Virus record (IMG/VR): IMGVR_UViG_3300028908_000006
Location: 1 to 64,000 of that record
DNA from: a virus
DNA: 64,000 nt
Reading direction: 5' to 3' (one strand)
Below the pieces are notes generated by a model that had not been told where the DNA came from, made no database searches, and saw only the letters and a list, made by a program, of their open reading frames with translations. This document shows, in pieces, positions 3,731 to 59,872 of this stretch. A program made the translations under genes and the position numbers. Every line of letters begins with the position of its first letter. The stretch's first letter is position 1.

Positions 3731-3741
3731 GGGCGTTCTCC

Positions 3742-4026: not shown

Positions 4027-4037
4027 AGCAACCCTCC

Positions 4038-5697: not shown

Positions 5698-5988
5698 TTA
5701 CCGAATCTCCACTACATCTCCTGGGTTTACTCCACGGATGTGAGACTCAACTACAACCGCTCCATCAAGTCTCGGATCATATACTCCTACCCAAGCACAA
5801 GGATGGTAGTGGTGAATTAGGTAGCCATATAGCCAGATAGGACCACGGCCAGAAAGAACCACGCCCTTAGTGGTCCCAACAGAAGGCGGAGAGATCTTCT
5901 TTAGATCCTGCGGGATGATAGGTTCTTCAGGAAGGGCAAACTCTACAAGAGTGAATCCGTTCTTATCGGTGGTTTTGAACTTTATCAT
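5698..5988 (-). CDS. csx3: Csx3/Crn3-family CRISPR ring nuclease (cA4 degradation)
   Basis: Likely start 5988 (AAGGAG RBS); FTLVEF, KGVVLSGRGPIWLY, HHYH, VYDPRL, AVVVESH, GDVV match the Csx3 signature. Confidence 0.9.
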   Translation of the reverse strand: MIKFKTTDKNGFTLVEFALPEEPIIPQDLKKISPPSVGTTKGVVLSGRGPIWLYGYLIHHYHPCAWVGVYDPRLDGAVVVESHIRGVNPGDVVEIR

Positions 5989-6431: not shown

Positions 6432-9400
6432 CTAGCCTGACATATTTAGTAGTGCGTAAGCTCTTGGAACTATTACAAGTCCAAGGTATTTCCTTACCTT
6501 GCTTGGTGAATCTGTATCGAAAGCAATGACATCGGTTCCAAGTGGTTTGTATCCCAGAGCTACCAGTATATCTTTTACGATGTTGATTAGCTTTGAGCGT
6601 TCCATTCTAATGATAGCTTCCTTGCTTCCGAGTCTCTTAACGAGCTCCCGCTCTATCTTCTTGAGTTCCTCTTTGTTTCTAATGAACTTTATTCCTGTAA
6701 TGACAGGCTTCATTTCTTTGGTAGTGGGAGTGACGAGCCAGAACTTGTAGTAGGTTCTTCTTTCACCACCTACATACCGCCTGAATGATTCATATTTGAT
6801 TCCAAGCCTTTCCAGGTCTTCCTTGTGAACTTGTAAGAACTTCCCAATAGCCACCCGAGACATCTCTTTTCCGTGTGCTTCAAATAATTGCTCGAGTTTC
6901 TTGGATGACACAAGCACGAAATCACGTTCATCTTTCATGTTCTTGTTTATTATTTTTTCGAGTACTTCATAAGCCTCTGGATCTGAGAACGCTCTAAGAT
7001 CTTCATCTATTTCGAAGCCATCATCCGCTTCATCACACCCTGCTATGATCTCTTTGGCTGTATCCAGGGAGATGTATCTCGTGAGAGAAGTTTCTCCGTT
7101 CTTTTCAACCACCCGCTCAGCTATTAACTGAATCATCTTACATACCACCTTGAACACGGCCATCCTGTCATCCGGATCAACCTTTATCTCAGCCACCTTC
7201 CGACACAACCAGTCCTTATCTGGATCACTTGATCCAACGATCTCTTCTGTCACTTCTATCTCATAATCCGGATTACAATACATCTTTGTTCTTAGCTTGG
7301 CCTTATACTTGACCACGGGATTGTTCAGGGCAACGCTTGCAAGCTCCATGATAGCCCCAACTATCTCGCCGGCCATCTTGCTGGCAATGTAGGCCGGAGA
7401 GATAGAGCCTGCTTCAGCCTTCTTGAGCGTGATATGGACCAGCCTGTTGTTGAAATCCTGAGAATCTTTCCTCCAGACTCCGTAATGGGAAAGAATGATA
7501 GTAGTTCTGTCTGGATCAATTGTAATCTCTTCCACTTCTGAGTTGGTGTAGAGCCTTCTCATGATAACTGTCCCACCAAGAGATTGAGTATTAAGCAGGT
7601 TTATGGTATTCCTTCTTATCTTGTCAACTTCATCCATAATCAGCCCGTTGCTGTTGTGGACGATGGCAAGAAAGTCTCTCTTCTTGCATGAACCACCAAC
7701 GTGAGTGGGGAATCCAAATAGAGTGGTAAACACCCGTCCCATATCTGATTTACCCACACCAGTTGCTCCCTGATAGACGAAGATAGGCTTCTCTACCGAA
7801 GGAAGCCCTGTCATGACCAGGCAACCAGCATGAGCCACCCTTCCCTTTGGAGAGTAGCACCTTGTATTCTCGACAAGAAGCGCAAATCCGTTTCCATCTG
7901 AAACCGGCATGGGAATTCTTCTTCTTTCTTCCTTGTAGAGAAAGTATATGTTGTCCGGAAAGCTCTTCTCGACTCCATCAGGAGTCACCTTGACCACACC
8001 ATCTCTTGTGTAGTAGTAGATGTGGTCCGCTATCTCGAGTTTGTCTGTCTTGCAGATGAAGACATCAGCACTCTCTTCAGCCGCATCTTCAAGAAGGTAT
8101 TCCACATAGACGAGAGAGTTTGGGTTTGGATTGAGATCTATCCCGGACTCAACGATAGCCTTAACCATCATCCCACGAGCTTTCCTGGTATCGAGCTTGA
8201 CTGCTTCGTGAGTATCTTTATCCAGCAAAAAGATCTCTCCAAAAGCCTTAACCACCCGATACTTCTTAATAACAGCTTCAAATAGTTCCTTTACCAGTAT
8301 CTTTCCTTTCTTGCTCCGCTTCTCTTTAACATCCCTGGTGAACTCAACTATGTCAGCTCCTTCTACTTCTTCAAAGGAGACCTTCATCCCTTCCTTGAAA
8401 TGGGAGTCAGGATCAGCACCATCAGGAAGCCTTGCAATCCTTACTTCTATCCCGGCATCAACCAGCTTCTCAGCAGAAGCAATACTTCCATCCCGGCCAG
8501 CCTTGTCTCCATCGAACATGAGAAGGGCTTTCTTTATTCCTTCTCTCTTCAGCAACTCCACTTCTTCTTTGGTAAGCCTTGAAGTGCAGGTAGCAACAAC
8601 ATTCCGATGCCCAATCTCCCGCAACCGCAACATATCAAACGGGCCCTCTACTACGATAAGGAATCCAGCCTTTCTGGCTTCCTCAAGCCCACCATCGTAG
8701 AAACCAAGAAGGAGTTCTTTCTTCCTAAAGAATCTATTGTTTGAGAGACAGACATACTTCTTGTCTCCATCTCCTTCTGGCTTCCGATAACCTATGACTC
8801 CAACTATATTCCCATTCTTGTCATAGAAGGGAAAGATGAGCCGGTCACAGAGACTCTGGTGGGGATAAAGATAAGTCTTGACATCTGTCTCTTTCTTTGT
8901 TACTATCTTGAGAGATATGAGATCAGCTAGGAGCTTTTCTCCGTATCTCTCAATTAGTTTGTTTATTATTTCTTTTATTCTGGTGGCTGGGATGTAGAAA
9001 GTCCCAGCCACTTCTTTTTTGATCCCACGGGAAGCCAAAACTCCCACCTTCTTCTCTTCATCGTTTCCTTTTTCAATAATGCCGCTCATAAGCCTTGCAT
9101 ACTTGTCGTAATTGAGAATCTGCATAGATTTTTCCTCCTTTCTTACTTCTTTCCTGTTTCCTTTCCTGGTCTCTATCCTGGTGTAATCTCCAGCGATCTC
9201 CCTGAGGACTTTCAGGGCCTCCTTGTAGTCACAGGCCCGGAAGTGTTTGATGAACTCAATGGCATCAGCTGCCTTCCCACAACCGAAACAATAAGCCGTA
9301 TGATCTCCTTCCTTCCAGGCAAGGGAAGGCTCGTGGTCGTCATGCATGAAACACACCATCTTATACCACTCGCCTTCCTTCCTGTATTCGACACCAAGAA

Positions 9401-9455
9401 AATCGGCAACTTCAGTAAGTCTTACCTTTTCTTTGATTTCTTTTACGGTTTCCAT
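6432..9455 (-). CDS. DnaG-type primase (CHC2 Zn finger + TOPRIM) fused to a P-loop ATPase/helicase-like region
   Basis: CFMHDDHEPS...YCFGCG; IVVEGPFD; FDGDKAG; DPD; then GATGVGKS, LIMDE, RRLYTN. Confidence 0.85.
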   Translation of the reverse strand: METVKEIKEKVRLTEVADFLGVEYRKEGEWYKMVCFMHDDHEPSLAWKEGDHTAYCFGCGKAADAIEFIKHFRACDYKEALKVLREIAGDYTRIETRKGNRKEVRKEEKSMQILNYDKYARLMSGIIEKGNDEEKKVGVLASRGIKKEVAGTFYIPATRIKEIINKLIERYGEKLLADLISLKIVTKKETDVKTYLYPHQSLCDRLIFPFYDKNGNIVGVIGYRKPEGDGDKKYVCLSNNRFFRKKELLLGFYDGGLEEARKAGFLIVVEGPFDMLRLREIGHRNVVATCTSRLTKEEVELLKREGIKKALLMFDGDKAGRDGSIASAEKLVDAGIEVRIARLPDGADPDSHFKEGMKVSFEEVEGADIVEFTRDVKEKRSKKGKILVKELFEAVIKKYRVVKAFGEIFLLDKDTHEAVKLDTRKARGMMVKAIVESGIDLNPNPNSLVYVEYLLEDAAEESADVFICKTDKLEIADHIYYYTRDGVVKVTPDGVEKSFPDNIYFLYKEERRRIPMPVSDGNGFALLVENTRCYSPKGRVAHAGCLVMTGLPSVEKPIFVYQGATGVGKSDMGRVFTTLFGFPTHVGGSCKKRDFLAIVHNSNGLIMDEVDKIRRNTINLLNTQSLGGTVIMRRLYTNSEVEEITIDPDRTTIILSHYGVWRKDSQDFNNRLVHITLKKAEAGSISPAYIASKMAGEIVGAIMELASVALNNPVVKYKAKLRTKMYCNPDYEIEVTEEIVGSSDPDKDWLCRKVAEIKVDPDDRMAVFKVVCKMIQLIAERVVEKNGETSLTRYISLDTAKEIIAGCDEADDGFEIDEDLRAFSDPEAYEVLEKIINKNMKDERDFVLVSSKKLEQLFEAHGKEMSRVAIGKFLQVHKEDLERLGIKYESFRRYVGGERRTYYKFWLVTPTTKEMKPVITGIKFIRNKEELKKIERELVKRLGSKEAIIRMERSKLINIVKDILVALGYKPLGTDVIAFDTDSPSKVRKYLGLVIVPRAYALLNMSG

Positions 9456-14451: not shown

Positions 14452-15250
14452 CATTATCATCCCACTCCACCAGGAGATCTTTGGACGGCCTCTCTTCCTG
14501 TCTCCACCACAAAGAGGCCGCATATTGGTTTTCATTGAAGAGCTTAATCTATCGCTTGAAGAACTTGAGAATTTTTATAGATATGTCTTGGAGTATTACA
14601 AGGATAAGGGATATTATGTTCGCCCCGGCCACCTGTGCTCCAGGAGAATCAAATCTTTTGTGGAGCTGGTCAAGGGTGGCCCAGCAAAGATCATAAACTA
14701 TAAGCTTTATTACCATCCCTTATATAGGAGACGCCCTGCCAGTCTGTCTCCACCCTATGAGGAAACGTTATTCAAGTATCTAAAATTTGCCCGTCATATC
14801 ATGGAGGCTTCCCGTCTCATTTACGTTCCCAAAGCTGGCCTTGTTATGGAGACGGGATTTGTTTTCTATAAACAGGCAGTTGCTGAGACTTCTCATTTTA
14901 GAGATAGCTTCAGAGAGTATTCAGAAGCCTTTTCATACTTCCTGAGCCTGGCTGATAAATTCAGGCATAGAGACACCTCCAGGATATGGAGGTCAAAACC
15001 GTTCTGGAAGATCCTCATCCCGAGGGAATACTTCAATTCTCTGATCGGCTCCCTTACTTATGAAGAGGCCCTTCTTTTTGTTGATATGGCAAGATTCATG
15101 AATCTCACGAAACGCGAAATGAGTGCTGTTTCAGCACTCAGTAGTAAACTTGAGCGCTTTAGAGAGCAGTATGGTGAATATTTGTGGCTCTTACCAAAAC
15201 CAAGGACACGAATAGTGAGGGTGATAAATAGTCTATGCAGGCACCGATAG
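14417..15250 (+). CDS. hypothetical protein upstream of the primase-helicase
   Basis: 277 aa; overlaps both neighbours. Confidence 0.6.
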   Translation: MLKSYERNPIDDIIIPLHQEIFGRPLFLSPPQRGRILVFIEELNLSLEELENFYRYVLEYYKDKGYYVRPGHLCSRRIKSFVELVKGGPAKIINYKLYYHPLYRRRPASLSPPYEETLFKYLKFARHIMEASRLIYVPKAGLVMETGFVFYKQAVAETSHFRDSFREYSEAFSYFLSLADKFRHRDTSRIWRSKPFWKILIPREYFNSLIGSLTYEEALLFVDMARFMNLTKREMSAVSALSSKLERFREQYGEYLWLLPKPRTRIVRVINSLCRHR

Positions 15251-16947
15251 AATTTGTCCGTGGCCAGAAGTGGCCTTACAAAGTTGACAAGAACGACATC
15301 ATCACTTTCTGTCCGCTCTGTAACACTCAGCAATCTCTCCAGATGAACTTCTTTACTGGCCGCTGGAAGTGCCATTCCTGTAACCAGGAAGGAACTCTCT
15401 ATGACCTCAAGAAGAAGATAGGTTTGATAAATCCGATAACTTCAGTTTCTTCCCTTGAGCCGCTTGATGACTACCATGTAAGAAAGATAGAAGAGGCGCA
15501 CAACCTTCTCATCTCTTCTCCTTCTCTTCTTGAAGAATTGCTTTCCTGGCGCCCCTGGACTATAGAAGCCGTAAAGCATTTCAGGCTCGGCTATACTGAG
15601 GTCCGCTTTGAAGACGGCACCATCAAAAAGTTTCTTACCATTCCTCACTCCTATCAGGGAAAGTTCTACAATGTGAAGTTTCGTTCCTGGCCGGGAGAAC
15701 CAAAAGAGTTCCAGCGTATCCCAAACGCGCCTACTATTCTCTTCAATACTGATGTCTGTCTCTCTTCTGAGACCAACGAAATCATGATTGTTGAAGGGGA
15801 ACTTGATTGCATCACGGCCTGGTGTTGTGGTTATCGAAATGTAGTAGCCACCACGGGCGGAGCGAAATCATCAATTCCATCTCCTTTCCTTGATCTCCTG
15901 GAGCAGTTTGAGAGGGTGGTGATAGCTTTCGATGGTGATGAGGCAGGAAGGGTCGGGGCAAAGAAACTTGCCAGACAATTAGGAATACATCGCTGTTTCC
16001 TGATAGACTTCCCGGATGGCTTCGATCTTACTGATTATGTGAAGGTTTATTCTTGTGAGAAGTTGAAGGAACTATCCCCAACTCCACTCTATCTTTCAGA
16101 TATAGAGAACTTTTCAGCCATTGTTGAACGAATTTCCATTGCTGGGGGAGAAGAAGATCTTCTTTCAACAGGCTTTAAGAACCTAGATGAGATAGTAGGC
16201 GGTTATGCTCCTGATGGGTTTTTGCTCACCATTGCATCTCCGCCAAAATCAGGGAAAACAACCTTCTCCTGCGCCCTGGCTTTAAACTTTGCCCGCAACC
16301 ACGGCCCGGCCCTTATCTATTGTCTTGAGATGAACAAGGAAAAGATTGCTTCTATTATTGTTTCTCAGTTGCTACATTCATCAAGAAAGCCTTCAACGAT
16401 AGAAGCCTCTCTTGTGAAAGAGAATTTTTCTAACCTTCCGCTCTATCATGCCTTCATGGCAAATGCCCAGCCAGAAGTAGTGTATGAAACCATAAGGGAG
16501 GCCTTCTATCGTTTTGGAGTGCGTTTTGTTGTATTTGATAACATTCATTATCTCGTGCGCGGGGTGGACAACAAGGCCTCTGTGCTTGCTGATGTGGTGA
16601 AGAATTTTTCTCTGCTCACAAAGGAGCTTGGCATCACCATCCTACTCATAGCTCAGCCCAGGAAACTTCCGAGGCAGAAAGGCCAACCTACTGAAATGAC
16701 TGCTTCAGATATAGCCTGGACATCTGCTCTTGAATCTGATTCAGATCTCTTGCTCATCATCAACCGGCCACGAATCTACTCCAAGCAGAAAACATTTTCT
16801 CCCTTCTTCAAGGTGATAGCAGAGGCATCCCGTTATGCCCCTGGGGGAGTGGCGTACTTTTTATTGGATGAGTTTTCTGCTACTGTAATCCCGTGTTCAG
16901 ACTTGGTTTCAAAATACTTCACAAAATTTGAGCAAGGAGAGAATTGA
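15235..16947 (+). CDS. T7 gp4/Twinkle-like primase-helicase (Zn finger, TOPRIM, SF4 helicase)
   Basis: CPLC...CHSC; IVEGELD; FDGDEAG; SPPKSGKTT; LEM; FDNIH; LIAQPRK. Confidence 0.92.
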   Translation: MQAPIEFVRGQKWPYKVDKNDIITFCPLCNTQQSLQMNFFTGRWKCHSCNQEGTLYDLKKKIGLINPITSVSSLEPLDDYHVRKIEEAHNLLISSPSLLEELLSWRPWTIEAVKHFRLGYTEVRFEDGTIKKFLTIPHSYQGKFYNVKFRSWPGEPKEFQRIPNAPTILFNTDVCLSSETNEIMIVEGELDCITAWCCGYRNVVATTGGAKSSIPSPFLDLLEQFERVVIAFDGDEAGRVGAKKLARQLGIHRCFLIDFPDGFDLTDYVKVYSCEKLKELSPTPLYLSDIENFSAIVERISIAGGEEDLLSTGFKNLDEIVGGYAPDGFLLTIASPPKSGKTTFSCALALNFARNHGPALIYCLEMNKEKIASIIVSQLLHSSRKPSTIEASLVKENFSNLPLYHAFMANAQPEVVYETIREAFYRFGVRFVVFDNIHYLVRGVDNKASVLADVVKNFSLLTKELGITILLIAQPRKLPRQKGQPTEMTASDIAWTSALESDSDLLLIINRPRIYSKQKTFSPFFKVIAEASRYAPGGVAYFLLDEFSATVIPCSDLVSKYFTKFEQGEN

Positions 16948-17912
16948 TGCATCCAAAGATAAGAAGCTTCCTTGGTAAGCGTGCGGCTATCCTTAAGGTA
17001 TCAGGCCAAGCGGCCAGGTTTTCAGGAGATACCATTGAGATTGTTGGGATAGACTTTATTTACAGGCTTAAGGTTCCTGGTGTGAGCATAGTCCCTTCCA
17101 TCTTTATCAACATCCAGGACCTGACATCGGTCCTCTCTATTCTTGGAGAGATTGAAGAAGCAAAGAGAGTGGATCGCAGGCTCCTTCTGAGACAGTCTTT
17201 CATCCAGGCAGAAATACCGGTAATGGAAGGAGATGTAAGCACGACTGTCTCTCAGATAACAGAAGGGGATACCATTTTATTTCCCGATGATTTCTATGAA
17301 TCGCTGGTCTCCCTTTCAAAGATCTTTTCCCTGGCCATGATCTACTTTCCAAGAAAGGACAGAGTGATTGTGCATGATGAAGGGGCCCGCTTCCTGGCCG
17401 TGATAGAGACAGAAGTCCCTGAAGATGTGATAGGCTCTTATGGCACCTGTTCTTCAAGTACTATCTTCATAGATTCTTTTTCTCCATCCTGGCAAGTCAT
17501 CCCTTCTACCTGGCACATCGTCTTAGGCCAGCATGGAGAACGGGAAGATTTTTACTTCATCTTCTCTTCCATGAAAGCGATTGAACTTGAACAGTTTGCT
17601 CCGCTTGCAAACCTTCTAGACGAACTCCTTTCTGAAGAAAGGATAGCCATAAAGACAGAGCCAAAACTTTTTTCAGCATCCTCTTTCCCCATAACCGATG
17701 TTATATTCAGGAATAAAGACATCATCATTTCATCTGACTCCTTCTCTCTTACCTTTGAAGGGGCCCTTTCTTCACCGATTGAAGCAACCATCCTCTCTTC
17801 TTCTTGGCAGGATTTAATTCCAAAGGCGAAGGGATACAGGCTTTTCTATCTCCCTGGCAGAAAGTTTTTGTGTGCTGAATCTGATCGTTTCAAGATCTTC
17901 CTACCTGCATAA
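16944..17912 (+). CDS. hypothetical protein, possibly a divergent sliding clamp
   Basis: 322 aa, beta-rich, between helicase and polymerase; clamp loader present downstream (inference). Confidence 0.4.
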   Translation: MMHPKIRSFLGKRAAILKVSGQAARFSGDTIEIVGIDFIYRLKVPGVSIVPSIFINIQDLTSVLSILGEIEEAKRVDRRLLLRQSFIQAEIPVMEGDVSTTVSQITEGDTILFPDDFYESLVSLSKIFSLAMIYFPRKDRVIVHDEGARFLAVIETEVPEDVIGSYGTCSSSTIFIDSFSPSWQVIPSTWHIVLGQHGEREDFYFIFSSMKAIELEQFAPLANLLDELLSEERIAIKTEPKLFSASSFPITDVIFRNKDIIISSDSFSLTFEGALSSPIEATILSSSWQDLIPKAKGYRLFYLPGRKFLCAESDRFKIFLPA

Positions 17913-20353
17913 TGAAGACCATAGATCTTCGCTTTGAAAAGCCAGAGAAGTGTGAGAAGTGTCAGTTTTTTCGGGCAGAGAGTGCCAAGTATGAATTTCC
18001 AGATAATCCAAAACTTGTTATCGTTGGAGAGTCCCTGGGTTATCGAGAAGTCCAGGAAGGGTCTCCATTTGTAGGAAAATCAGGAGCCTTCCTGAACACT
18101 CTTCTTTCCTTCTTTGATCTTACAAGAGACCAGGTTCATGTTACCAATGCTATCAAGTGTTTCCCTGGTGCTGGGAAGAACAAGGAGAAGATCAAGAAGC
18201 CGTCCATCAAGAAGTGCCTCTCCATCTTCCTTTCCCAGGAACTAGAAGAAACCAATCCCACACCGGTTCTTGTCCTTGGAGATCATGCCACCTACGCCAT
18301 CACCTTCTATCTATTTGGGAAAGGAAGAACCATCAAGGAGCTTGATGGGCGTGTAATTCAGAAGGATGGCCGGAAATATGCTTTCATGCGCCATCCTTCT
18401 TTCTATATGCGTCGCTATGGTGAAGGGAAGGCTGAAAAGGAATTTTACAACCATGGAAAGAAACTTCTTAAGGCCCTTTTTTCAGATGGTGCGGGAGACC
18501 TGAACTTTGACGATCCTCCACTCCCATTCACTTATCATGTTGGTGAGAGCCATCTTCTCTCCTTCCTATCTTCTCTTCCAGACAATGAAATCCTCATCTT
18601 TGACATTGAGACCAACGGCCTTCATTTCACCAACAAGGACATGGAGATAACCCTCATTGGTGTTTCAGACACCAGGGGAAACATCTTTGTGAACAAGCCA
18701 AGCAGGAAGATAATTGATGGTCTTTCCAGATTTCGTCTTGTGGCTCACAATGGAAAGTTTGACATCAACTTTATCAGGGCCAAGTATGGTATCAGGCTCA
18801 ATCTTTACTTTGACACCTTGCTTGCTGGTTATGCCATTGACCAGGGAAGAAAAGAGTATTCTCTTGAATCACTTACCTATACCTATGCACCAGACGCTGC
18901 TCTCTGGCGTGGAACTACCAAGTCAAAGAAGAAAGCGTCAACTCTTGATTTCGAGACTCTTGTTGAATACAACGCCATAGATGTCTATGCCACCTATCGG
19001 CTTTACCAGGAACTTTCACCAAAGCTGGAGTCTTCCTTCTTTTTCTGGGAAATTCTCATGCCAGCAACTGATATTTTTGCGGATGTAGAATTTCATGGCG
19101 CTTATGTAGATATTGAGCGTCTGCGATATATTGGAAACCTATGCCTTCACCTTAAATCTGTGGTGGAGAGAGACATCCGTTCTCTTCCTGAAGTTAACCA
19201 GCTTGAAGAAGAAAGAGGGACAAAATACAATCCAAGATCTTCCCAGCACAATCTTTTCATTCTCCAGCAAATAAAGAAACTGCAATATACAGATCCAAGA
19301 ACGAAGAAGACCTATCTTATTCCTTCGTCTAACAAGAAGATCCTGGCCAGGTTTAAGGATGATCGTTTTTGTAGTCTTCTTTTAAAGTATAGGAAGTATC
19401 AGAAGGCGTCCTCAACCTATGCTAAGGGTATAGAGAAGAAACTCATTCCAACCAAGTATCAAAACATCTTTAGAGGCTATCCATCCTTCTTTCTACATAG
19501 GACAGCAACGGGAAGGACTGCTTCAGGATCCCTTTTGACTGATTCTGCTTCCCCCATCACCCGCACGAAAGACGACATTTCTTTCAACTTCCAGAACTTC
19601 CCTCGTGGGAGGCTTATCCGTGGGATGATTATCCCACCGCCAGGATATATCATTGTATCGTTTGACTACTCCACCCTTGAAATGCGTATAGCAGCTGGCA
19701 TAGCCAACGAGCAACACCTAATTAAGGCCTTCATGGAAGGGCTTGATTTCCACACCTATATGGCTTCTCTTACCTTTGATGTGCCCTATGAAGAAGTAAC
19801 CAAAGAACAGCGTCAGCTGGCAAAGACCGTTTCGTTTGGGCTCCTCTATGGTGCATCTCCACTCTTGCTGGTGGAGAATTTTGGAATTTCAGAAGAGAGG
19901 GCTTATGAGATATACGACCGCTATTTTTCATCGGTGCCAAACATAAAAGCCTGGATAGACTCAACGATTGCCTTCATTGAAGAACACCATTATGTAGAAA
20001 CTCCCTTTGGTAGGAGAAGATATTTTTATGACCTTTCAAACAATGCTTACAAGCGTGAAGGTCCAAACATGGTGGTTCAATCTGTAGCCTCGGATCTCAT
20101 GCTCATTACGCTTTCTCTTATCAAGAAGGAACTACTTTCTCTTTCCTGGTGGGAGAGGGAAGTGATCTTCTTCTGTGCCGTCCATGATTCAGCTTCTTTC
20201 TATATCAAGGAAGACCAGGAAGTTATCGAAAAAGCAATTGACATATTCATCGATTGTGCTATGCTTAAGGTAGCAAGGATACCTGAAGTAGCTAGAGTAC
20301 TTTCAGGCTGCCCATTGCTGATAGATTTCAAGGTGGGGAAAAGATGGGAATAG
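17912..20353 (+). CDS. polA: family A DNA polymerase with N-terminal family-4 uracil-DNA glycosylase and 3'-5' exonuclease
   Basis: UDG: CEKC, IVGE, PFVGKSG, TNAIKC, HPS; exo: FDIET, HNGKFD, YNAID; pol: TATGR, DYSTLEMR, KTVSFGLLYG, VHD. Confidence 0.95.
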   Translation: MKTIDLRFEKPEKCEKCQFFRAESAKYEFPDNPKLVIVGESLGYREVQEGSPFVGKSGAFLNTLLSFFDLTRDQVHVTNAIKCFPGAGKNKEKIKKPSIKKCLSIFLSQELEETNPTPVLVLGDHATYAITFYLFGKGRTIKELDGRVIQKDGRKYAFMRHPSFYMRRYGEGKAEKEFYNHGKKLLKALFSDGAGDLNFDDPPLPFTYHVGESHLLSFLSSLPDNEILIFDIETNGLHFTNKDMEITLIGVSDTRGNIFVNKPSRKIIDGLSRFRLVAHNGKFDINFIRAKYGIRLNLYFDTLLAGYAIDQGRKEYSLESLTYTYAPDAALWRGTTKSKKKASTLDFETLVEYNAIDVYATYRLYQELSPKLESSFFFWEILMPATDIFADVEFHGAYVDIERLRYIGNLCLHLKSVVERDIRSLPEVNQLEEERGTKYNPRSSQHNLFILQQIKKLQYTDPRTKKTYLIPSSNKKILARFKDDRFCSLLLKYRKYQKASSTYAKGIEKKLIPTKYQNIFRGYPSFFLHRTATGRTASGSLLTDSASPITRTKDDISFNFQNFPRGRLIRGMIIPPPGYIIVSFDYSTLEMRIAAGIANEQHLIKAFMEGLDFHTYMASLTFDVPYEEVTKEQRQLAKTVSFGLLYGASPLLLVENFGISEERAYEIYDRYFSSVPNIKAWIDSTIAFIEEHHYVETPFGRRRYFYDLSNNAYKREGPNMVVQSVASDLMLITLSLIKKELLSLSWWEREVIFFCAVHDSASFYIKEDQEVIEKAIDIFIDCAMLKVARIPEVARVLSGCPLLIDFKVGKRWE

Positions 20354-46825: not shown

Positions 46826-46902
46826 TGGAGCCGGTGGAGGGACTCGAACCCTCAACCTATGGATTACAAATCCATTGCTCTACCAAATTGAGCTACACCG
46901 GC
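46826..46902 (-). tRNA. tRNA-Thr(TGT)
   Basis: GCCGGTG...ATGGA-TT-TGT-AA-TCCAT...GTTCGAGT...CACCGGC-TCCA. Confidence 0.93.
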
Positions 46903-48005: not shown

Positions 48006-48079
48006 GGGCCTGTAGCTCAGCTGGTTAGAGCCACCGGCTCATAACCGGTAGGTCCCTGGTTCAAGTCCAGGCAGGCCCA
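48006..48079 (+). tRNA. tRNA with CAT anticodon, probably Ile2 (lysidine); CCA not encoded
   Basis: GGGCCTG...ACCGG-CT-CAT-AA-CCGGT...GTTCAAGT...CAGGCCC-A; Ile-type acceptor stem. Confidence 0.88.
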
Positions 48080-48080
48080 C

Positions 48081-48911: not shown

Positions 48912-49196
48912 ATGTTAGTGAAGGAGAAGATACTTTCCTTGATACCAAAGGAAAAGCAAGGAGCTATTGTTGGTGATGAATTGTTTTTCGAATGCCCCAA
49001 TCCTGAACATGATGATGAAAACTATACGAACTGTTCTATAAACTTGAAAACAGGCCTGTATTATTGCTTTGTGTGTGGAGAGAAAGGCAACTTGAAGAAA
49101 CTAAGTCGCATTTACAAATCGTCATCTAACAATATGGAGTATGATCCATTCAAGCCCGCTAAACAGGGCGTCAAACGAAGCTGGAGAATATGGTGA
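48912..49196 (+). CDS. stand-alone CHC2 primase-type Zn-finger protein
   Basis: CPNPEHDD...SIN...YYCFVCGEKG. Confidence 0.7.
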   Translation: MLVKEKILSLIPKEKQGAIVGDELFFECPNPEHDDENYTNCSINLKTGLYYCFVCGEKGNLKKLSRIYKSSSNNMEYDPFKPAKQGVKRSWRIW

Positions 49197-50656
49197 GTGA
49201 TCCCAGAATCGAAGTAAGTGACGTAGCCCACCCATACCACACCAGTAACGTGTCTTTGTGGCGTGAGTGCCACCTCGCTTTTAGAGGTGGTAAGGAGTTT
49301 ATAGAGTATGTGATCTCACGCCATCAGCTTGAACTTGATGATGATTTTTACATCCGTAAAAAGAGAGCCTTCTACCTGAATTTCGTGAAACGGATCGTAA
49401 ATACGATGACGGACATCATTTTCGATAATATGATAGTCCGTCCAACGATTGATAAATACAAAGTTTTAAAACCTTTTTACAAGAAAGCGTCTTTCTATGG
49501 CGAATCGTATGAGACCTTCATAAGGAGAGTTTCAAAACTCTCCTCTGTTTTTGGTTGGGTAGTGGTGGCCGTTGATTTCTTCGGGACAAAGGTACCCACT
49601 CTTGCTGATGTTGAAAATGGTGTTGCATACCCGCGTTTGAGGCTCTTCACTCCCCTTGAATTTGTTGATTGGCAGAGAAATGGTGATGGGTTCAAGTATG
49701 GGGTGGTGAAGAGAGAGGTCTATGTGAAGGAAGATCCTGACAATCCGTTTTCTGAGACAAAGAACATAGATGAATATATCCTTTATACCGATAAAGAAGT
49801 CGTTGTAATCAGAGAGGATGTAATTTCAGCACGTTACAAGCATAACCTCGGATTCGCTCCTTTGATCCTGGTAAATGATTCCACAGTTGACGAGTTTGGG
49901 TTCTCTGAACCCCTCATCAAGGATGCCTCTCGAATAGCGGCCACAATAGTAAACTGGTCGTCTGTTCTTGATGAGGTCTTTTCAAGACAGACATTGTCCC
50001 AGCTTGTCTATCCCAATGAAGGGTCAATTGAAGAGGAAGCAGCAAGGCTCCTGGATCGTAGCAACATCCAGGGCCAGATCTCAAACCTGGATGATCTGGC
50101 TAACTTCGAGAAACTAGTGTTGAAGAAGATAGGGACGGCCAAAGTATTTACATATCCGGCAAATGCCGGCCACCCTCCACAATATATCTCACCACCGGCT
50201 TCTGATATGAGGATTGGCTGGGAGATAATAATGCAGCTTGCCCAGGTGATGTTCTTCCTTGTTGGTCTTGGTAGTGTGAGAGAAGATATTTATACAGCAT
50301 CTTCCAAGGCCAGAGAGTCTGCTCTTTCTTTGATGAAGTCATACCTTAAGGATAAGGCAAACAATCTTCAAACAGCAGAAGAGAATATTCTTCAAACATT
50401 CTTTGCCTATATGCCGCCAAGCATTTGCCCTGCATCTATTGAAGTTAAGTATCCAGCCGAGATAGATCCTGGTCCTTATATTGATTTCTTTAACGCTACT
50501 GTTCAGTCTCTCATTAAACCGAACATATCAACGGAATTCAACAAGGCAATTCTTAAGAAGCTCGTAGATAAGTGCCCATACTTGACAGATGAAGAGAAGA
50601 GTGTTATAAAAGACGAAATAGATGCTTCTTCTGGCATATTCAACATTCCAAAATAA
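49190..50656 (+). CDS. portal protein
   Basis: HP.Y...W..C...F.GG..F, R.KRA.YLN, YISP; 488 aa at the start of the head module. Confidence 0.8.
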   Translation: MVSDPRIEVSDVAHPYHTSNVSLWRECHLAFRGGKEFIEYVISRHQLELDDDFYIRKKRAFYLNFVKRIVNTMTDIIFDNMIVRPTIDKYKVLKPFYKKASFYGESYETFIRRVSKLSSVFGWVVVAVDFFGTKVPTLADVENGVAYPRLRLFTPLEFVDWQRNGDGFKYGVVKREVYVKEDPDNPFSETKNIDEYILYTDKEVVVIREDVISARYKHNLGFAPLILVNDSTVDEFGFSEPLIKDASRIAATIVNWSSVLDEVFSRQTLSQLVYPNEGSIEEEAARLLDRSNIQGQISNLDDLANFEKLVLKKIGTAKVFTYPANAGHPPQYISPPASDMRIGWEIIMQLAQVMFFLVGLGSVREDIYTASSKARESALSLMKSYLKDKANNLQTAEENILQTFFAYMPPSICPASIEVKYPAEIDPGPYIDFFNATVQSLIKPNISTEFNKAILKKLVDKCPYLTDEEKSVIKDEIDASSGIFNIPK

Positions 50657-50690
50657 AGAGCCAAATAAATCCTAATAAAGGAGGTTTTGT

Positions 50691-51572
50691 ATGCCTGATA
50701 AGGACAAGGATAAAGATGTGCAGAAAGATGTCCATGATGGACAACAGCCAAACGTGAATGACGATGATGGTCGTTCAACGACTGATGCCGTTAAGAAAGG
50801 TATTGACGACATAAAGAAACAGGCTGCATCTACCAATGATCCTGAAGTGTTGAAGATCCTGCTGGACAAAATAACCTCTCTTGAAGAGCGTTTGTTGGAG
50901 TTACAACGACAGGAGGCTGAGAGGAAGGAACGAGAGGAGCAGGAAATACTGAAGCGTATGTCTGAGACTGAGAGGTTACGTTATGAGCTTGAGAAGAAGG
51001 AAAAGGAAATTGAGAAGGTTAAGAAGGAGCTTGAGGAGAGCCTTGGGAAGAAAGCGAGGGAGCTTGAAGAGCGTCTCAAGAAATATGAAGAGGATCGCAA
51101 AAAGCTTGCTGAAGCAGCGGCCAGGGCAAAAGCATTAGAGGCCGCTTCAAGATTTGGAGCATACAATCCTGAGCAGGTTTATCTCCTTATCAAGGACAAT
51201 CTTGTGGCTGGAGAAGACGGAAGCGTATTTGTAAGAGTGCGTGATGGTGAGCAATTCAAGCAGGTTCCTGTGGATGAGTATCTTAAAGAATTTCTTGCCC
51301 GTCCAGAAAACAAGAACCTCCTCAAAACCAATGCTGCTATTGGGGACAGGGATATAAGGCCCGAGGAAGGGGTAAAGACTTCCGCCCCATCTGCTGAAGG
51401 ACTCACTCCAGAGGTCGAGAAATTCTGGCGTGGTCTGTCTGAGCGTCAAAAGGAAAACATCATGAACAAAGCTATGATTATGAAGCGGCCGTGGCAGGAA
51501 CTGGCTCACCTGGAGTATATCAAATATACAAAGGCCAAACAATACAAGGAAAAATATATGAAGCGATCTTAA
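50691..51572 (+). CDS. head scaffolding protein
   Basis: long charged coiled coil; GAYNPEQV. Confidence 0.7.
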   Translation: MPDKDKDKDVQKDVHDGQQPNVNDDDGRSTTDAVKKGIDDIKKQAASTNDPEVLKILLDKITSLEERLLELQRQEAERKEREEQEILKRMSETERLRYELEKKEKEIEKVKKELEESLGKKARELEERLKKYEEDRKKLAEAAARAKALEAASRFGAYNPEQVYLLIKDNLVAGEDGSVFVRVRDGEQFKQVPVDEYLKEFLARPENKNLLKTNAAIGDRDIRPEEGVKTSAPSAEGLTPEVEKFWRGLSERQKENIMNKAMIMKRPWQELAHLEYIKYTKAKQYKEKYMKRS

Positions 51573-51601
51573 CTCCTGATTCAGAAATGACGAGTCAGGA
51601 G
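51573..51601 (+). promoter_or_regulatory. hairpin partly sequestering the RBS of 51612
   Basis: CTCCTGATTC...GAGTCAGGAG. Confidence 0.55.
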
Positions 51602-51611
51602 GGAAGCTATT

Positions 51612-51857
51612 ATGGCCAGAAAGAAGTCCAAGTTTAGAGTCCAGGAAGCTATCAAGCGTCCTGGTCGTGTTAGGAGCTACATCAAGAGACTTTATGGTGA
51701 CAGGGCATTTACCAAGCAGGGCACGATCAAGCAGGAGTATCTCATGCGTGCCATTGAACGTGTCAAGAATTCCAGAATGCCTAAGGAAAAGAAGAAGTCG
51801 TTACTTTCTGCACTAAATCTGGCAAGGAATCTCAAGTCTTGGGCAAAGAAGAGATAA
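51612..51857 (+). CDS. basic DNA-binding virion protein resembling fusellovirus (SSV1) VP2
   Basis: VQEAIKRPGRV..Y..RLYG.RAFTK.G.IK..YL..AI..VK....PKEKK.SLLSAL.LA..LK. Confidence 0.75.
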   Translation: MARKKSKFRVQEAIKRPGRVRSYIKRLYGDRAFTKQGTIKQEYLMRAIERVKNSRMPKEKKKSLLSALNLARNLKSWAKKR

Positions 51858-52276
51858 ACGAAATTGTCGAGCTTTCAGAGGTTATAGAAGAGGCTCAGGA
51901 TGATATGGTTGACATTCCTGAGCCTCTTCATGCTGGTGAAATAACAGATCCCCATGAGATTGAAGAGAAGCTGGCTGAACTTCCGGAGGAGCTAAAAACC
52001 CATGCTGCTCAGGGGATATTGAAGAAGATTGATGAGGGGCTTGAGTGGGCTGAGAGAGGAGTGAGACAGTTCTTCAATACCTCTCCGAAGAGAGCTGTAG
52101 AGTTCCAGCAAAACTACATTTCATTCCTGGAACTTAAAGCCAAAATCCTGAAACTCATCTCTGATACCGGTAGCACGAAACAACAGGCTGTTAGTGCACA
52201 ACAGAATAACATCATTGTAGATCCTGAATCGGCAAAGGAACTTGTTAACAAGCTGGTAAAGAAGCTCTATGAATAA
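51839..52276 (+). CDS. hypothetical protein, possibly terminase small subunit
   Basis: immediately upstream of TerL; QQNNIIV tail. Confidence 0.45.
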   Translation: MGKEEINEIVELSEVIEEAQDDMVDIPEPLHAGEITDPHEIEEKLAELPEELKTHAAQGILKKIDEGLEWAERGVRQFFNTSPKRAVEFQQNYISFLELKAKILKLISDTGSTKQQAVSAQQNNIIVDPESAKELVNKLVKKLYE

Positions 52277-53849
52277 CATTGATGTCTCAAGTCTTTCAGA
52301 CAATGAAAGGAAACTTCTCGGATATGCTTGTTCACTTGATTTCAAGGCTTTTATAGCCGTCTGTCTGAGAGACCAACTCAACTATCCTTTTTCGCCCTTC
52401 CATGATTTCATTTGTGACCTTATAACCCATAAGCTTGGGAGCAGGATGCGATATGTGGTAGCAGCTCCCCGTGGATTTGGAAAGAGCTCCATCATAACGG
52501 AAGCTGCTGCCTTATGGCTTATCTGTCGTAGAGAATACATTTCTCTGTCCGATAGAGATCCAAGGAATAAAAACTACATCATAGTGATTTCAGACACCAT
52601 AGATCAGGCCGTGGAGCACCTGGCAAACGTAAAAGAGTTGCTTGTGAACAATGATACGATACGGATGTTGTTTCCAAATGCTTCTGGTGAGGGGCGGGTA
52701 TGGAAATCAGACATGATTGTTTCAAGATCCGGGGTTGTGGTGAGATCTCTTGGAACGACATCCAAGATAAGAGGACGGAGATTTGGGTTTGCAAGGCCGG
52801 ATCTTGTCCTTGCGGATGATATAGAGAATCTTGAAATGGTGCAATCTGAATCTATGAGGAACTATCTCTATGAGTGGTTCACGCGTGACGTGTTGAAAGC
52901 AGTTGATCCGGAACGCTCAGATGTCATCGTGGTTGGAACGATAATATCCAAGAATGCTTTACTATACAAGTTGTTTCACTCTGAAGAATTTGCAGGGTGG
53001 GATGGTAGGAAGTTCAAAGCCATTATTTCCTGGCCAAAGAGGATGGATCTGTGGGATGCCTTTGGTGAGATCATAAAAGATCGCAGAGATCCGAATAGAT
53101 TCCAGAAAGCTATGGAATTTTATGAAGCGCACAAAGAGGAGATGGACGAGGGTGCTGAGATACTATGGCCTCAGAGATTTACTCTTGTTGACCACATGAC
53201 AGAGTTCTATCTCGAAGGCAAAAAAACGTTCATGCTGGAAAGACAGAATGAGGTTGTGGAAGATGTAGATCGTGTCTTTGAGATTGATAAATACTACTAT
53301 TATCAGGATGAGGAGCTGGAAGAAATACCAAAATCAAGACTCCTTTTCTATATGTATGTAGATCCAGCCACGGGCAAGAAGAAAGGCAGATCACGAAAAC
53401 AATCAACTGATATGTTTGCCTGTGTGGTGATAGCAAAGGACATTGGAACGAACGTGTATTATCTGATAGATTACTACGCTGATATTATATCACCCAACAG
53501 GCAATTCGCTGTAATAAAGAAATTCATAAACACATATCCGATATACAGGTTCTTCGTGGAATCAAATACAAGCCAGTTCTACTACTACGAGTCGTTGAGA
53601 GATTGGTTGTTGAGGTCCGGGATACATCGCCCGATACCGAGACCTCATGTGAACAAGGAAAACAAAGAAAGAAGGATTGAGGCTCTGGCACCGTATCTTG
53701 AGAACTGGACATTGAGACTGTCTCCAAACCACAGACAGATGATAAGGGATCTTGAGGATTATCCGGCAGTAGAATACGATGACCTTCTTGATTGCCTTTC
53801 ATCCTGTTTCTTCAATGCATACAAACAAAGGAGATTGGTTATTGCCTGA
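52269..53849 (+). CDS. terminase large subunit
   Basis: APRGFGKS, RGRR..ARPDLVLADDIE, VVGT, YVDPA, FVESN, YDDLLD. Confidence 0.93.
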   Translation: MNNIDVSSLSDNERKLLGYACSLDFKAFIAVCLRDQLNYPFSPFHDFICDLITHKLGSRMRYVVAAPRGFGKSSIITEAAALWLICRREYISLSDRDPRNKNYIIVISDTIDQAVEHLANVKELLVNNDTIRMLFPNASGEGRVWKSDMIVSRSGVVVRSLGTTSKIRGRRFGFARPDLVLADDIENLEMVQSESMRNYLYEWFTRDVLKAVDPERSDVIVVGTIISKNALLYKLFHSEEFAGWDGRKFKAIISWPKRMDLWDAFGEIIKDRRDPNRFQKAMEFYEAHKEEMDEGAEILWPQRFTLVDHMTEFYLEGKKTFMLERQNEVVEDVDRVFEIDKYYYYQDEELEEIPKSRLLFYMYVDPATGKKKGRSRKQSTDMFACVVIAKDIGTNVYYLIDYYADIISPNRQFAVIKKFINTYPIYRFFVESNTSQFYYYESLRDWLLRSGIHRPIPRPHVNKENKERRIEALAPYLENWTLRLSPNHRQMIRDLEDYPAVEYDDLLDCLSSCFFNAYKQRRLVIA

Positions 53850-54436
53850 TGTTTACCATAGCTGTCAAGCAAAGAAATCCCATCACAAAAGAACCAGCTC
53901 TATGGTTTTATTCACCAAGATGTTCTCTATGTTGCCGTGATTGCATAGTTCCGTTCAAGACGCAGACAGATTACACGAAACTCGATATTGTGCCTGTCAC
54001 AGAGAGATACAGGAACGAAATATCAAGTCTCGTTCTCTATCTTGGTAACATGACACAGAAGCCACATATCATTATAAAATATCTAAACGTGTTCAAATCT
54101 AGGTGGCCTGGGCTGAAACGCTACATTGCCTTCGCTGTCCCAAGCCTTGGTTATCTCTGGAAGTATTTCACCTACAATCTTGCTGATGGGCTTATATTTG
54201 ATCTCCATGCCCCGGCAGTAGTGCCAAGATCAGGGAAGCCTCCCCTCATGAAAGAAACCTGCTGCAATGAAAGACAGTTTATCCAAGCTCTCATTTTGTT
54301 GAGAGCGCTTGAAACGGACCCAAAGTCACCTCCTCATGTAATACGGGTGATGTTTGATCCCAGAAGATACAAGGCTAACCATGTTAAGGAATGGATGGGC
54401 TGGCTTAAAAATACATTTCCATTGGAGATGCCGTGA
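53849..54436 (+). CDS. degenerate radical-SAM-like protein (CxxxCxxC)
   Basis: PALWFYSPRCSLCCRDC; ADGLIFDLHAP; no GGEP. Confidence 0.4.
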   Translation: MFTIAVKQRNPITKEPALWFYSPRCSLCCRDCIVPFKTQTDYTKLDIVPVTERYRNEISSLVLYLGNMTQKPHIIIKYLNVFKSRWPGLKRYIAFAVPSLGYLWKYFTYNLADGLIFDLHAPAVVPRSGKPPLMKETCCNERQFIQALILLRALETDPKSPPHVIRVMFDPRRYKANHVKEWMGWLKNTFPLEMP

Positions 54437-54696: not shown

Positions 54697-55227
54697 TTAG
54701 GTTATTCCAAGTTTTTCTACAAACCAGGGAATATTTGGGATTACTTCTTCCGGATGCATCTCTTCCATTTTCTTCCTCAGGCTTAAAATAATATCTTCTC
54801 TTGCAAACCTGAACGTCTCTAAATCATCCAAAAACCTCAGAAGCCCAAGATAGCAGAAATCTGCAGGAAGGGGTGCCTTTGGGGAGATGAATCCATGCGG
54901 ATAAGTCTGTTTTATTTCTTTGTTTTTGATGGTGGTGATGTGGTAGAATAATTCGCTGCGCCATTGAACAAAATAAGGAACTCTGATAACTCGCATTCCA
55001 TATTCTCTTAGAAGGCTTGATTTACTCTTATCGTTGAGAATCACTTTTGCCTTCGTGTAATGTAACGGACCATCGAACTCTACGACAGTATCAAGGTCTG
55101 GGATATAAATATCTGGAATAACTACTCTTCCAGCAACCTTTATCCTTTTGTTTCTTTCAATTTTTAATTCACATTCTCTTTTTAAGTATCTGTATAACCT
55201 TTCTTCCGTTAGAAACTTTTCTCTCAT
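54697..55227 (-). CDS. DUF559/Vsr-like PD-(D/E)xK endonuclease (free-standing homing endonuclease candidate)
   Basis: IPDIYI...VVEFDGPLHY...GMRVIRVPY; real start near MREK. Confidence 0.75.
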   Translation of the reverse strand: MREKFLTEERLYRYLKRECELKIERNKRIKVAGRVVIPDIYIPDLDTVVEFDGPLHYTKAKVILNDKSKSSLLREYGMRVIRVPYFVQWRSELFYHITTIKNKEIKQTYPHGFISPKAPLPADFCYLGLLRFLDDLETFRFAREDIILSLRKKMEEMHPEEVIPNIPWFVEKLGIT

Positions 55228-55276
55228 AGCGATGTATCTACCACAGAAGCTTGTTGTAGTCAAGATTAAAAATTTT

Positions 55277-55324
55277 AGCCTAACTACTTCCTCCCAAAAT
55301 AACAAGGATAGGAGGAAGTAGTTA
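55277..55324 (+). promoter_or_regulatory. late leader: 22-bp conserved element and 14-bp RBS-sequestering hairpin
   Basis: TAACTACTTCCTCC/GGAGGAAGTAGTTA perfect stem. Confidence 0.75.
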
Positions 55325-56331
55325 TGCCCTACGATATTACAACCTTTAAAGAGTATATAGAGAAAGAGGCGTATTCGATCTTCTTCGACTCGCTTCCTGC
55401 CCCGGACCAGCCTTACTATCAGTTCGTTGAGGTGGATGAGGATACCGGTAAGATTCTCCACCAGACAGATTCTCTTGCTTACTCCGGGACTCTTGATACC
55501 TGGGAAGAGGGAGACACCCTCACTTATGAAGAGCCTCAGTTCGGTTATCCGGTGTATGGCCGAGTGAGGTTCTTCAGGAAGGGACGTAAGCTTACCTGGC
55601 ATCAGCAGCAGATTCAGTCCCTCGCGGACCAGCTTCTGGCTCAGGTGCGTGATTGGGCCTGGGCTTATACCAGGACTAAGAATGAGTGGATTCGCCGGAT
55701 GATCGAGGAAGGCGCTTTGACGGCTGGTTCTGCAGTATTCAACCAGTCCATTGCTGGTTCCGATCCCTGGACAGACCCAACTGGTAACTTTATCTATGAT
55801 AACAAGCCTTTCTTTGCCAATGACCTGTCTGGGACGGGTGGAAGCGACAATCGTCACCCTCTCAAGACAGATCCTACTAAGCTTTATGAGAACTATGCGG
55901 CTCTTCCGCTTACTTATGATAATTTGCTCACGGTTTACAACAAGATGGTCCAGAACAATGTTGACGACTGGGGCCGTAAGATAGAGGTGCGACCTGATAT
56001 TCTCCTGGTGCCAACTGCTCTTGAAGTAACTGCTCGTCAGCTGGTGGAAGCCGACTTCGCGCCTCATGATGATACCACTCCATCCAAGCCTAACCCGTTC
56101 AAGAATGTGCTTCGGGTAGTGGTATGGCCTGAGCTTCAGGTAAGTGATGGGTGGTGTTTGATCGATTCCAAGATGAAGGGAATCGTGGTGCTTGAGAATC
56201 CGGCTGACGTTGACATCAACGTTTGGATTGATGAGAAGGAGCGGGCGCTTTACTGTGACATCGTGTGTAAGTTTGGTGCCTATGTAAGGAACTGGCGTCC
56301 GTTCTTTGGTTGTAACTATCCTCAGAGCTAA
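55324..56331 (+). CDS. major capsid protein (Mu gpT-like HK97 fold)
   Basis: YDNKPFFA...HP, RPDILLVPTALEVTARQL, NPFK, WRPFFG. Confidence 0.85.
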   Translation: MPYDITTFKEYIEKEAYSIFFDSLPAPDQPYYQFVEVDEDTGKILHQTDSLAYSGTLDTWEEGDTLTYEEPQFGYPVYGRVRFFRKGRKLTWHQQQIQSLADQLLAQVRDWAWAYTRTKNEWIRRMIEEGALTAGSAVFNQSIAGSDPWTDPTGNFIYDNKPFFANDLSGTGGSDNRHPLKTDPTKLYENYAALPLTYDNLLTVYNKMVQNNVDDWGRKIEVRPDILLVPTALEVTARQLVEADFAPHDDTTPSKPNPFKNVLRVVVWPELQVSDGWCLIDSKMKGIVVLENPADVDINVWIDEKERALYCDIVCKFGAYVRNWRPFFGCNYPQS

Positions 56332-59795: not shown

Positions 59796-59872
59796 CGGGG
59801 AGTGGCGCAGTCAAGTAGCGCATCTGCCTTGGGAGCAGAAGGTCGGCGGTTCAAATCCGCCCTCCCCGACCA
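59796..59872 (+). tRNA. tRNA-Pro(TGG)
   Basis: CGGGGAG...TCTGC-CT-TGG-GA-GCAGA...GTTCAAAT...CTCCCCG-ACCA. Confidence 0.9.

Follow-up and report, generated by a model that had tools for sequence, protein, structure and literature searches.

A VP2-family gene of fusellovirus type beside the packaging genes of a tailed phage

VP2 proteins of described viruses and a new family member

The DNA-binding protein VP2 has been purified from virions of the Sulfolobus spindle virus SSV1 and is termed a putative DNA-packaging protein in the passages devoted to it in three papers (PMC3367457, PMC4158269, PMC9351363). A homologue was detected earlier in the Thermus phage IN93 (ORF9) and another in an integrated archaeal element, according to part of the text of PMC4158269, while a section of PMC9608457 cites 'unrelated archaeal and bacterial viruses' as VP2 carriers, crediting Quemin et al. 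2015, and a portion of PMC10541130 mentions a VP2 gene in a spindle virus of Bathyarchaeia. VP2 is among the very few proteins common to viruses of hyperthermophilic archaea and of bacteria. The family, its DNA-binding role and its spread across host domains are already known, and one tailed phage in GenBank, the Thermus phage phiFa, sets a precedent that had passed without remark; among the papers searched, none mentions a VP2 homologue in a tailed phage, although Quemin et al. 2015 may already list tailed phages. Here we describe a further VP2-like gene, located at 51612-51857 (+) in a 64,000-nucleotide (nt) stretch of viral DNA, hereafter the window, which corresponds to bases 1-64000 of the 90,338-bp IMG/VR record IMGVR_UViG_3300028908_000006. 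Its novelty is modest: it appears to represent a second lineage among bacterial viruses, much closer to the fusellovirus proteins and placed directly at packaging genes, and it overturns nothing established.

The open reading frame (ORF) begins with the ATG at 51612, ends with the stop codon at 51855-51857 (+) and encodes a protein of 81 amino acids (aa). In Pfam this protein matches PF25632 (Fusello_VP2_Capsid, 'Fusellovirus capsid protein VP2 family') with E 4.6e-29 and 101.1 bits against a curated cut-off of 27, its residues 10-80 covering positions 4-74 of the 74 in the profile and hence the whole domain, and in PHROG it matches phrog_15706 with E 2.9e-24. BLASTP against SSV1 VP2 (CAA30204 of X07234) is likewise significant (28/42 identities, E 1e-18), and the two proteins are 62% identical in a full-length MAFFT alignment and 64% identical over 69 columns of the tree alignment. 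The initial annotation had proposed a near-full-length alignment with SSV1 VP2 for a peptide that corresponds to residues 10-75, and these searches bear it out. The similarity includes a middle segment, VKNSRMPKEKK in the new protein and VKKAKIPKEKK in SSV1 VP2 (pattern VK..(R/K)(M/I)PKEKK), which is missing from both Thermus homologues in the MAFFT alignment, where these are 40-41% identical to the new protein. With 62% identity to SSV1 VP2, the new copy lies much nearer the archaeal-virus proteins than do the published Thermus examples.

The family motifs (W)IQxAIKRPGRV, YGxxAFxxxGxIK and SLxxAxxLAxRLK are all kept, save that residues 9-10 read RV where the family has W-I/V, and every column conserved to at least 90% across 70 family sequences (G18, R19, G29, F33, G37 and A71) is retained. 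The protein has 27 K+R against 5 D+E, a calculated pI of 11.6 and a net charge of about +22, and so falls within the family's range of size and charge (about 65-95 aa, strongly basic). A genome-wide six-frame search located a single VP2 copy. To judge from its sequence, the gene is a true member of the VP2 family, the resemblance lying far beyond chance.

The carrier phage and the packaging locus

The record is classed as having direct terminal repeats; its ends carry an exact 127-bp repeat, and CheckV estimates its completeness at 72. By gene content the carrier is a siphovirus-like tailed phage, in which the portal protein, the terminase large subunit (TerL), an HK97-type capsid protein and tail genes typical of Caudoviricetes are accompanied by transcription, replication and lysis genes of bacterial type. 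Tail functions are represented by genes for a head-tail adaptor, a tape measure protein of 2299 aa and a tail protein matching phrog_290 (E 2e-56). The gene content supports the proposed placement of this region in the head module of a tailed bacteriophage.

One of the bacterial-type genes encodes a sigma-70 family factor, which matches TIGR02937 (63.4 bits, cut-off 42.9) and the Pfam models for regions 2 and 4. Further products are a primase of DnaG type that has a CHC2 zinc finger, a Toprim-DnaB helicase, an ATPase resembling clamp loaders, RecA, a family A polymerase (PolA) fused to uracil-DNA glycosylase (UDG), a ribonucleotide reductase that weakly matches class II at its N-terminus, and an N-acetylmuramoyl-L-alanine amidase (Amidase_3, E 8.2e-18). 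The sigma-70 factor, DnaG, DnaB, PolA and the murein amidase point to a bacterium as the host. TerL is about 30% identical to the TerL proteins of bacterial phages (329 matching records); the hosts named in the summary and the listed rows for these records are all bacteria, and 45 records name no host. An archaeal tailed virus, which would remove the cross-domain aspect, was considered and rejected in view of the sigma-70 factor, the CHC2 DnaG-type primase, DnaB, PolA and the murein amidase. Nor does the virus belong to Fuselloviridae, as it carries bacterial-type genes and its VP2 ORF is the only one to match SSV1 ORFs at E <= 1e-3. The sharing of a gene between viruses of two host domains, as put forward in the initial annotation, is hence supported by the homology and by the bacterial carrier; its novelty is not, since such sharing was already reported for the family in IN93. 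That the carrier is thermophilic is weakly suggested by its composition and by the company that the VP2 family keeps: the proteome has an IVYWREL fraction of 0.425, which translates to about 63 C, and an (E+K)/(Q+H) ratio of 3.47, but composition is a weak sign here because the same formula returns 20 C for the thermophilic IN93.

The VP2-like gene lies among the following features of the head block:

49190-50656 (+): portal protein gene, the first of the head block shown (phrog_145, E 1.3e-36)
50691-51572 (+): head scaffolding protein gene (phrog_206, E 8.8e-11; Pfam Phage_scaffold E 0.0015, below cut-off)
51597-51603 (+): Shine-Dalgarno-like AGGAGGG, as read from the sequence, 8 nt before the VP2-like ATG
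51612-51857 (+): VP2-family gene (PF25632 E 4.6e-29; 62% identity to SSV1 VP2; four helices in an AlphaFold2 model)
51839-52276 (+): ORF145, an acidic 145-aa ORF with pI 4.7 and a TTG start, a candidate small terminase subunit
52269-53849 (+): TerL gene (phrog_38, E 2.3e-84)
55324-56331 (+): major capsid protein gene of the HK97 / Mu gpT type (Pfam Mu-like_gpT E 1.2e-6, Phage_capsid_4 E 3.5e-6)

The VP2-like ATG follows the scaffold stop codon by 39 nt, and ORF145 overlaps the end of the VP2-like gene by 19 nt and the start of the TerL gene by 8 nt. The placement between scaffold and terminase genes given in the initial annotation is therefore correct, with one small ORF, ORF145, intervening before TerL. 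In a consensus scan, the + strand from 50230 to 54044 had no listed site resembling a promoter or a terminator, and the head-block genes around the VP2-like gene read as one operon.

VP2 is the sole ORF that the phage has in common with SSV1 or IN93 at E <= 1e-3, and at the nucleotide level it does not resemble SSV1 vp2 (lowest blastn E, 0.94); on both counts the gene is, as far as these comparisons reach, an old single-gene transfer rather than a recent graft. We consider it extremely improbable that it is an assembly chimera or a neutral passenger without function in the phage. Its being the only gene in common with fuselloviruses, in a record that is a metagenomic assembly, would suit such an explanation; yet the gene is intact, lies on the same strand as its neighbors, has its own Shine-Dalgarno motif and overlaps the next gene, its G+C content of 45% is near the 42% of the genome, the lack of DNA similarity to SSV1 vp2 speaks against a graft, and the residues most strongly conserved in the family are retained.

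The overlaps bring up a second explanation, namely that the VP2-like protein and the acidic ORF145 together form a two-part small terminase, of which the VP2-like part would bind or bend DNA at the site where packaging starts. Each of the two genes overlaps the next in the series that leads to TerL, their products have opposite charges (pI 11.6 and 4.7), and no other small terminase was recognized in the block. ORF145 has no match in Pfam, PHROG or NCBIfam searches; a weak lead in a protein atlas connects it to the small-terminase cluster of T5 (score 0.91, 125/256 features). The homologues in Tsatsa and IN93 also lie close upstream of a packaging ATPase gene, by three and two genes respectively, the ATPase being annotated only in Tsatsa and its IN93 equivalent being our own assignment. 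We nevertheless regard this explanation as distinctly unlikely: fuselloviruses retain VP2 and have no known terminase, the phiFa homologue lies away from the packaging genes, the VP2-like protein, in keeping with its family, matches none of the small-terminase families of Pfam, PHROG and NCBIfam, and site-specific recognition would be an odd property for a gene that moves among unrelated viruses.

Several further features of the phage were observed. A 456-aa ORF at 54697-56067 (-) runs antisense over the start of the capsid gene; its C-terminal part, at 54697-55290, matches DUF559 (Vsr / restriction-endonuclease-like) with E 2.8e-4 and a score of 21.1 bits (cut-off 20.6). A homing-type endonuclease may thus be lodged between the TerL and capsid genes, and the long stretch further upstream in the ORF, which covers part of the capsid gene, is probably a shadow ORF. 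An endonuclease with RRXRR and HNH domains (E 6.4e-55 and 3.3e-13) is encoded within the tail gene block at genome positions 71284-72474 (+), beyond the window (also given as L005:11284-12471). The 813-aa polymerase at 17912-20353 (+) combines a uracil-DNA-glycosylase-superfamily domain with a 3'-5' exonuclease and a family A DNA polymerase. Two primase-type genes lie on opposite strands, at 6432-9455 (-) and 15235-16947 (+): one encodes a 1006-aa DnaG-type primase with a CHC2 finger, DNAG_N and Toprim domains followed by a long C-terminal part without assignment, and the other is the Toprim-DnaB helicase fusion. The genes for tRNA-Thr(UGU), tRNA-Met(CAU) and tRNA-Pro(UGG), at 46826-46902 (-), 48006-48080 (+) and 59796-59872 (+), have a G+C content of 52-65% in the 42% G+C genome, and two of them end in an encoded CCA.

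Spread and phylogeny of the VP2 family

Family members were placed in a maximum-likelihood tree whose alignment was short (79 rows, 71 columns) and included 31 of 55 metagenome loci, short or partial ones being excluded (the fusion protein of L045 was among the 31 and was then removed), and 34 of 62 cluster representatives (P0002-P0063) that were shorter than 200 aa and passed a motif filter. In this tree the VP2-like protein groups with the VP2 ORF of Sulfolobus super-elliptical virus (SSeV) and two metagenomic sequences with a support of 90/83. The enclosing set of 37 rows (support 100/98) holds all 8 named fuselloviruses and zero Thermus-type sequences, while IN93, Tsatsa, phiFa, a Thermus composti provirus and a sequence from a Dehalococcoidia metagenome-assembled genome form a separate clade. 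The phylogeny, which had been proposed as a check on the VP2 assignment, thus places the protein on the fusellovirus side. Constraining it to the Thermus clade costs 26 log-likelihood units, with a p-value of 0.031 in an approximately unbiased test whose Thermus group was defined after the first tree had been viewed. Most tree neighbors of the VP2-like protein are unnamed metagenomic sequences whose hosts are not known, so that we make no claim on the direction of transfer. The safe statement on this phylogenetic evidence is that the VP2-like copy does not descend from the known lineage of Thermus viruses and that its nearest named relatives are viruses of Sulfolobales. This suggests a second, independent lineage of VP2 in bacterial viruses.

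A tblastn search of a 'phages' collection (50,697 records) with the VP2-like protein matched 19 records: 15 of fuselloviruses, two of IN93, one of Tsatsa and one of the tailed Thermus phage phiFa. With phiFa_82 as the query, 12 records of the same collection and no further tailed phage were found; in both sets phiFa alone falls outside the fuselloviruses and the IN93/Tsatsa group. The best match of the VP2-like protein was the SSeV record MN539721 (E 5e-12), which contains a clear 76-aa VP2-family ORF without an annotated coding sequence at L074:2992-3219 (+), about 5493-5720 of the record. When 1.84 billion cluster representatives were searched exhaustively with a profile, 209 clusters fell within E <= 0.001 and 56 within E <= 1e-10; the VP2 family is a small one. 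A query with a single VP2 protein matched no IMG/VR locus.

For a survey of genomic context, 61 VP2-bearing loci from IMG/VR, GTDB genomes and JGI metagenomes were classed by blastp, the IMG/VR loci L082-L084 being left out. Eight of the 61 are IN93-like, with at least 10 ORF matches, among them the Thermus composti contig, and four more have 1-2 IN93 matches. Another SSV1 gene is carried by 13 of the 61 (B251 in 10, A79 in 2 and the integrase D335 in 1). Two loci, both IN93-like, have only the amidase in common with the phage, and the remaining ones, most of the 61, gave no blastp match. Family scans of six loci (L017, L054, L039, L028, L084 and L009), chosen as the best or longest among those without explanation, revealed neither a tailed-phage hallmark nor any clear type of virion, the sole hints being a weak tail-fibre-J match in L054 and a DnaA-like match in L028. 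The closest metagenomic VP2 relative, with 65% identity, comes from L017, a contig of cellular appearance with a TRAP transporter and a PurD that contains an intein. In this contig the PurD (GARS) gene at 2662-4893 (+) has Hint/LAGLIDADG intein signatures, and the VP2-like gene lies directly 5' of a gene for a 2364-aa protein without a family match.

The VP2 domain also occurs in fusions, with one or two copies at the C-terminus of proteins of 320-550 aa. The C-terminal fusions (P0020, P0141, P0151 and P0129; L009, L045 and L084), one of which is a tandem, have a conserved N-terminal part (MRK..HYFTVRGRGF...) and come from viral or metagenomic contigs that are large (55, 130 and 230 kb) and high in G+C. 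In other proteins the VP2 domain is N-terminal: P0089 continues into a longer C-terminal part that appears radical-SAM-like as read from sequence alone, and P0050, P0126 and L030 into a conserved C-terminal domain of about 190 aa. Fusion to such unrelated parts suggests a general nucleic-acid-binding module, and the size and charge of the VP2-like protein are typical of nucleoid-associated proteins. It might accordingly act apart from packaging, silencing or compacting host or phage DNA or shielding phage DNA from heat or nucleases. We judge this very unlikely, in that the gene belongs to the block for head assembly and packaging, not to the early genes, and its homologues likewise occur in late blocks.

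A possible role at packaging and comparison with described systems

Members of the VP2 family are found in late or structural blocks of viruses with three unrelated virion designs, namely spindle-shaped, membrane-containing icosahedral and tailed; in SSV1, VP2 follows VP3 within the annotated T1/T2 transcription unit. Because the protein survives moves between such different capsids, its function would most simply depend on the DNA itself and not on capsid partners. In tailed phages the terminase threads DNA into the head through the portal, so that a DNA-bound protein cannot simply ride into the head. Spindle-shaped and membrane-containing viruses can enclose a DNA-bound protein, whereas in a tailed phage the portal would strip off a coat protein, and for this reason we favor a role before packaging.

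We tentatively propose, as a quite possible reading that we hold at somewhat less than an even chance, that the VP2-like protein is an accessory double-stranded DNA (dsDNA)-binding protein that acts on the phage DNA as the substrate of terminase before packaging. The gene would have been acquired as a single gene by a siphovirus infecting bacteria and would be transcribed and translated together with the genes for head assembly and packaging. Late in infection the protein would bind new phage dsDNA without sequence preference, and this binding would neutralize charge and compact or heat-stabilize the replicated DNA for the terminase, whose genes come directly after. The bulk of the protein would then be stripped off at the portal, any copies in the virion would need prior loading into the procapsid, and the protein would be an accessory rather than a core part of the process. 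The protein-condensed genome that the initial annotation derived from the same homology would be hard to reconcile with packaging through a portal.

Several points weigh against this proposal. An SSV1 vp2 deletion mutant was indistinguishable from the wild type, making vp2 dispensable, as stated in a passage of PMC3367457; as vp2 can be deleted from SSV1 without visible defect its role may be marginal, and SSV1 genetics leaves the function of VP2 open. An AlphaFold2 model built from a 70-sequence alignment (mean pLDDT 79.8, pTM 0.64) has helices at 9-13, 17-32, 41-53 and 58-80, with the conserved G18-R19 at the start of helix 2, and it is a guess from this model that conserved residues including G18-R19 contact DNA. 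Foldseek found no PDB structure that matches the model at E <= 0.001, the best VIA-align Z of 6.0 is within noise for helical proteins, and the lowest E in a profile search of PDB sequences was 0.025. The BFVD matches were all uncharacterized viral proteins that look like members of the family or carry its domain; AMDV3_4 ranked first (E 0.04, prob 1.00, 38% identity). With no related solved structure, the fold lends no independent support to DNA binding. No close relative of the phage was found either: its TerL matched just 4 IMG/VR loci, with identities of 24-30%, the head block had no blastn match in the 'phages' collection, and none of the 61 VP2-bearing loci has a head gene in common with the phage. 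The operon is read from gene spacing, since the promoter scan, with 26 sites against 24.8 in shuffled sequence, does not rise above the shuffles. The proposal starts from established points, namely family membership, basic charge, operon position, the sharing of a single gene and a bacterial, tailed virus; we infer from them the binding to DNA in this phage, its timing, the role in packaging and the fate at the portal.

The gene lies directly 3' of the scaffold gene and its product is extremely basic, which would also fit an internal head protein, loaded into the procapsid with the scaffold and kept in the head, where it would neutralize or condense the genome and aid DNA retention in a thermophilic phage. 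SSV1 VP2 is itself a DNA-bound virion protein, the one family member for which this is known, and the basic internal proteins of T4 offer a parallel. We think this rather unlikely. Entry other than through the portal would demand a targeting signal or a contact with the scaffold, which a horizontally acquired protein of 81 aa need not have, and at about +22 each, hundreds of copies would offset no more than a few percent of the phosphates, of which a 90-kb genome has roughly 180,000; by this arithmetic the protein would be a minor counter-ion and not chromatin. In the Thermus viruses, moreover, the homologue is not among the listed structural proteins: ORF9 is absent from Table 1 of PMC12154516, which covers the structural proteins of IN93 and P23-77, and the abstract of PMC12429598 does not name the VP2 homologue among Thermus-virus structural proteins. 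The fuller scenario, in which a thermophilic tailed phage loads a spindle-virus-type DNA-binding protein into its head and packages part of its genome with a protein counter-ion, the gene having come from the side of the Sulfolobales viruses independently of the Thermus viruses, appears unlikely to us; if true, it would make VP2 a portable genome-stabilizing module that crosses virion architectures and host domains in hot habitats.

The tailed head is a third virion architecture for the family and makes it tractable to test whether VP2 works on the DNA ahead of packaging or within the capsid. The gene also adds a data point on how frequently single genes of structural modules cross the divide between archaeal and bacterial viruses.

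Among described systems, VP2 of SSV1 and other fuselloviruses is of the same family over its full length, is similar in size and basic charge, has the longer middle segment VK..PKEKK and is likewise encoded in a structural-gene setting. The viruses themselves differ, SSV1 being a 15-kb spindle virus of Sulfolobales and the carrier a 90-kb tailed phage of a bacterium that holds no other SSV1 gene; in the phage the gene has no DNA-level similarity to vp2, and RV takes the place of W-I/V at residues 9-10. IN93 ORF9 and its kin (Tsatsa_10 and the Thermus composti provirus; Matshushitaviridae) resemble the VP2-like protein in being VP2-family proteins of bacterial viruses encoded close upstream of a packaging ATPase. 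Unlike it, they have only 40% identity, lack the middle segment of about 10 residues, fall in a separate tree clade and belong to tailless, icosahedral, membrane-containing virions. phiFa_82 (AYJ74783, 'hypothetical protein') is the only other family member from a tailed phage in the 'phages' collection, and the 77.7-kb phiFa genome is siphovirus-sized like that of the carrier phage; however, phiFa_82 is 41% identical, is of the Thermus-clade type and is encoded by the last gene of a holin and muramidase block that adjoins replication genes rather than scaffold and terminase genes.

The internal proteins IPI-III of T4 are small, basic proteins of the head that are encoded with head genes, brought in by a capsid-targeting signal and cleaved by the head protease. 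A relation to them in sequence or fold was neither looked for nor seen; they are the nearest functional analogy for an internal head protein, similar to the VP2-like protein in small size, basic charge and a head-gene setting.

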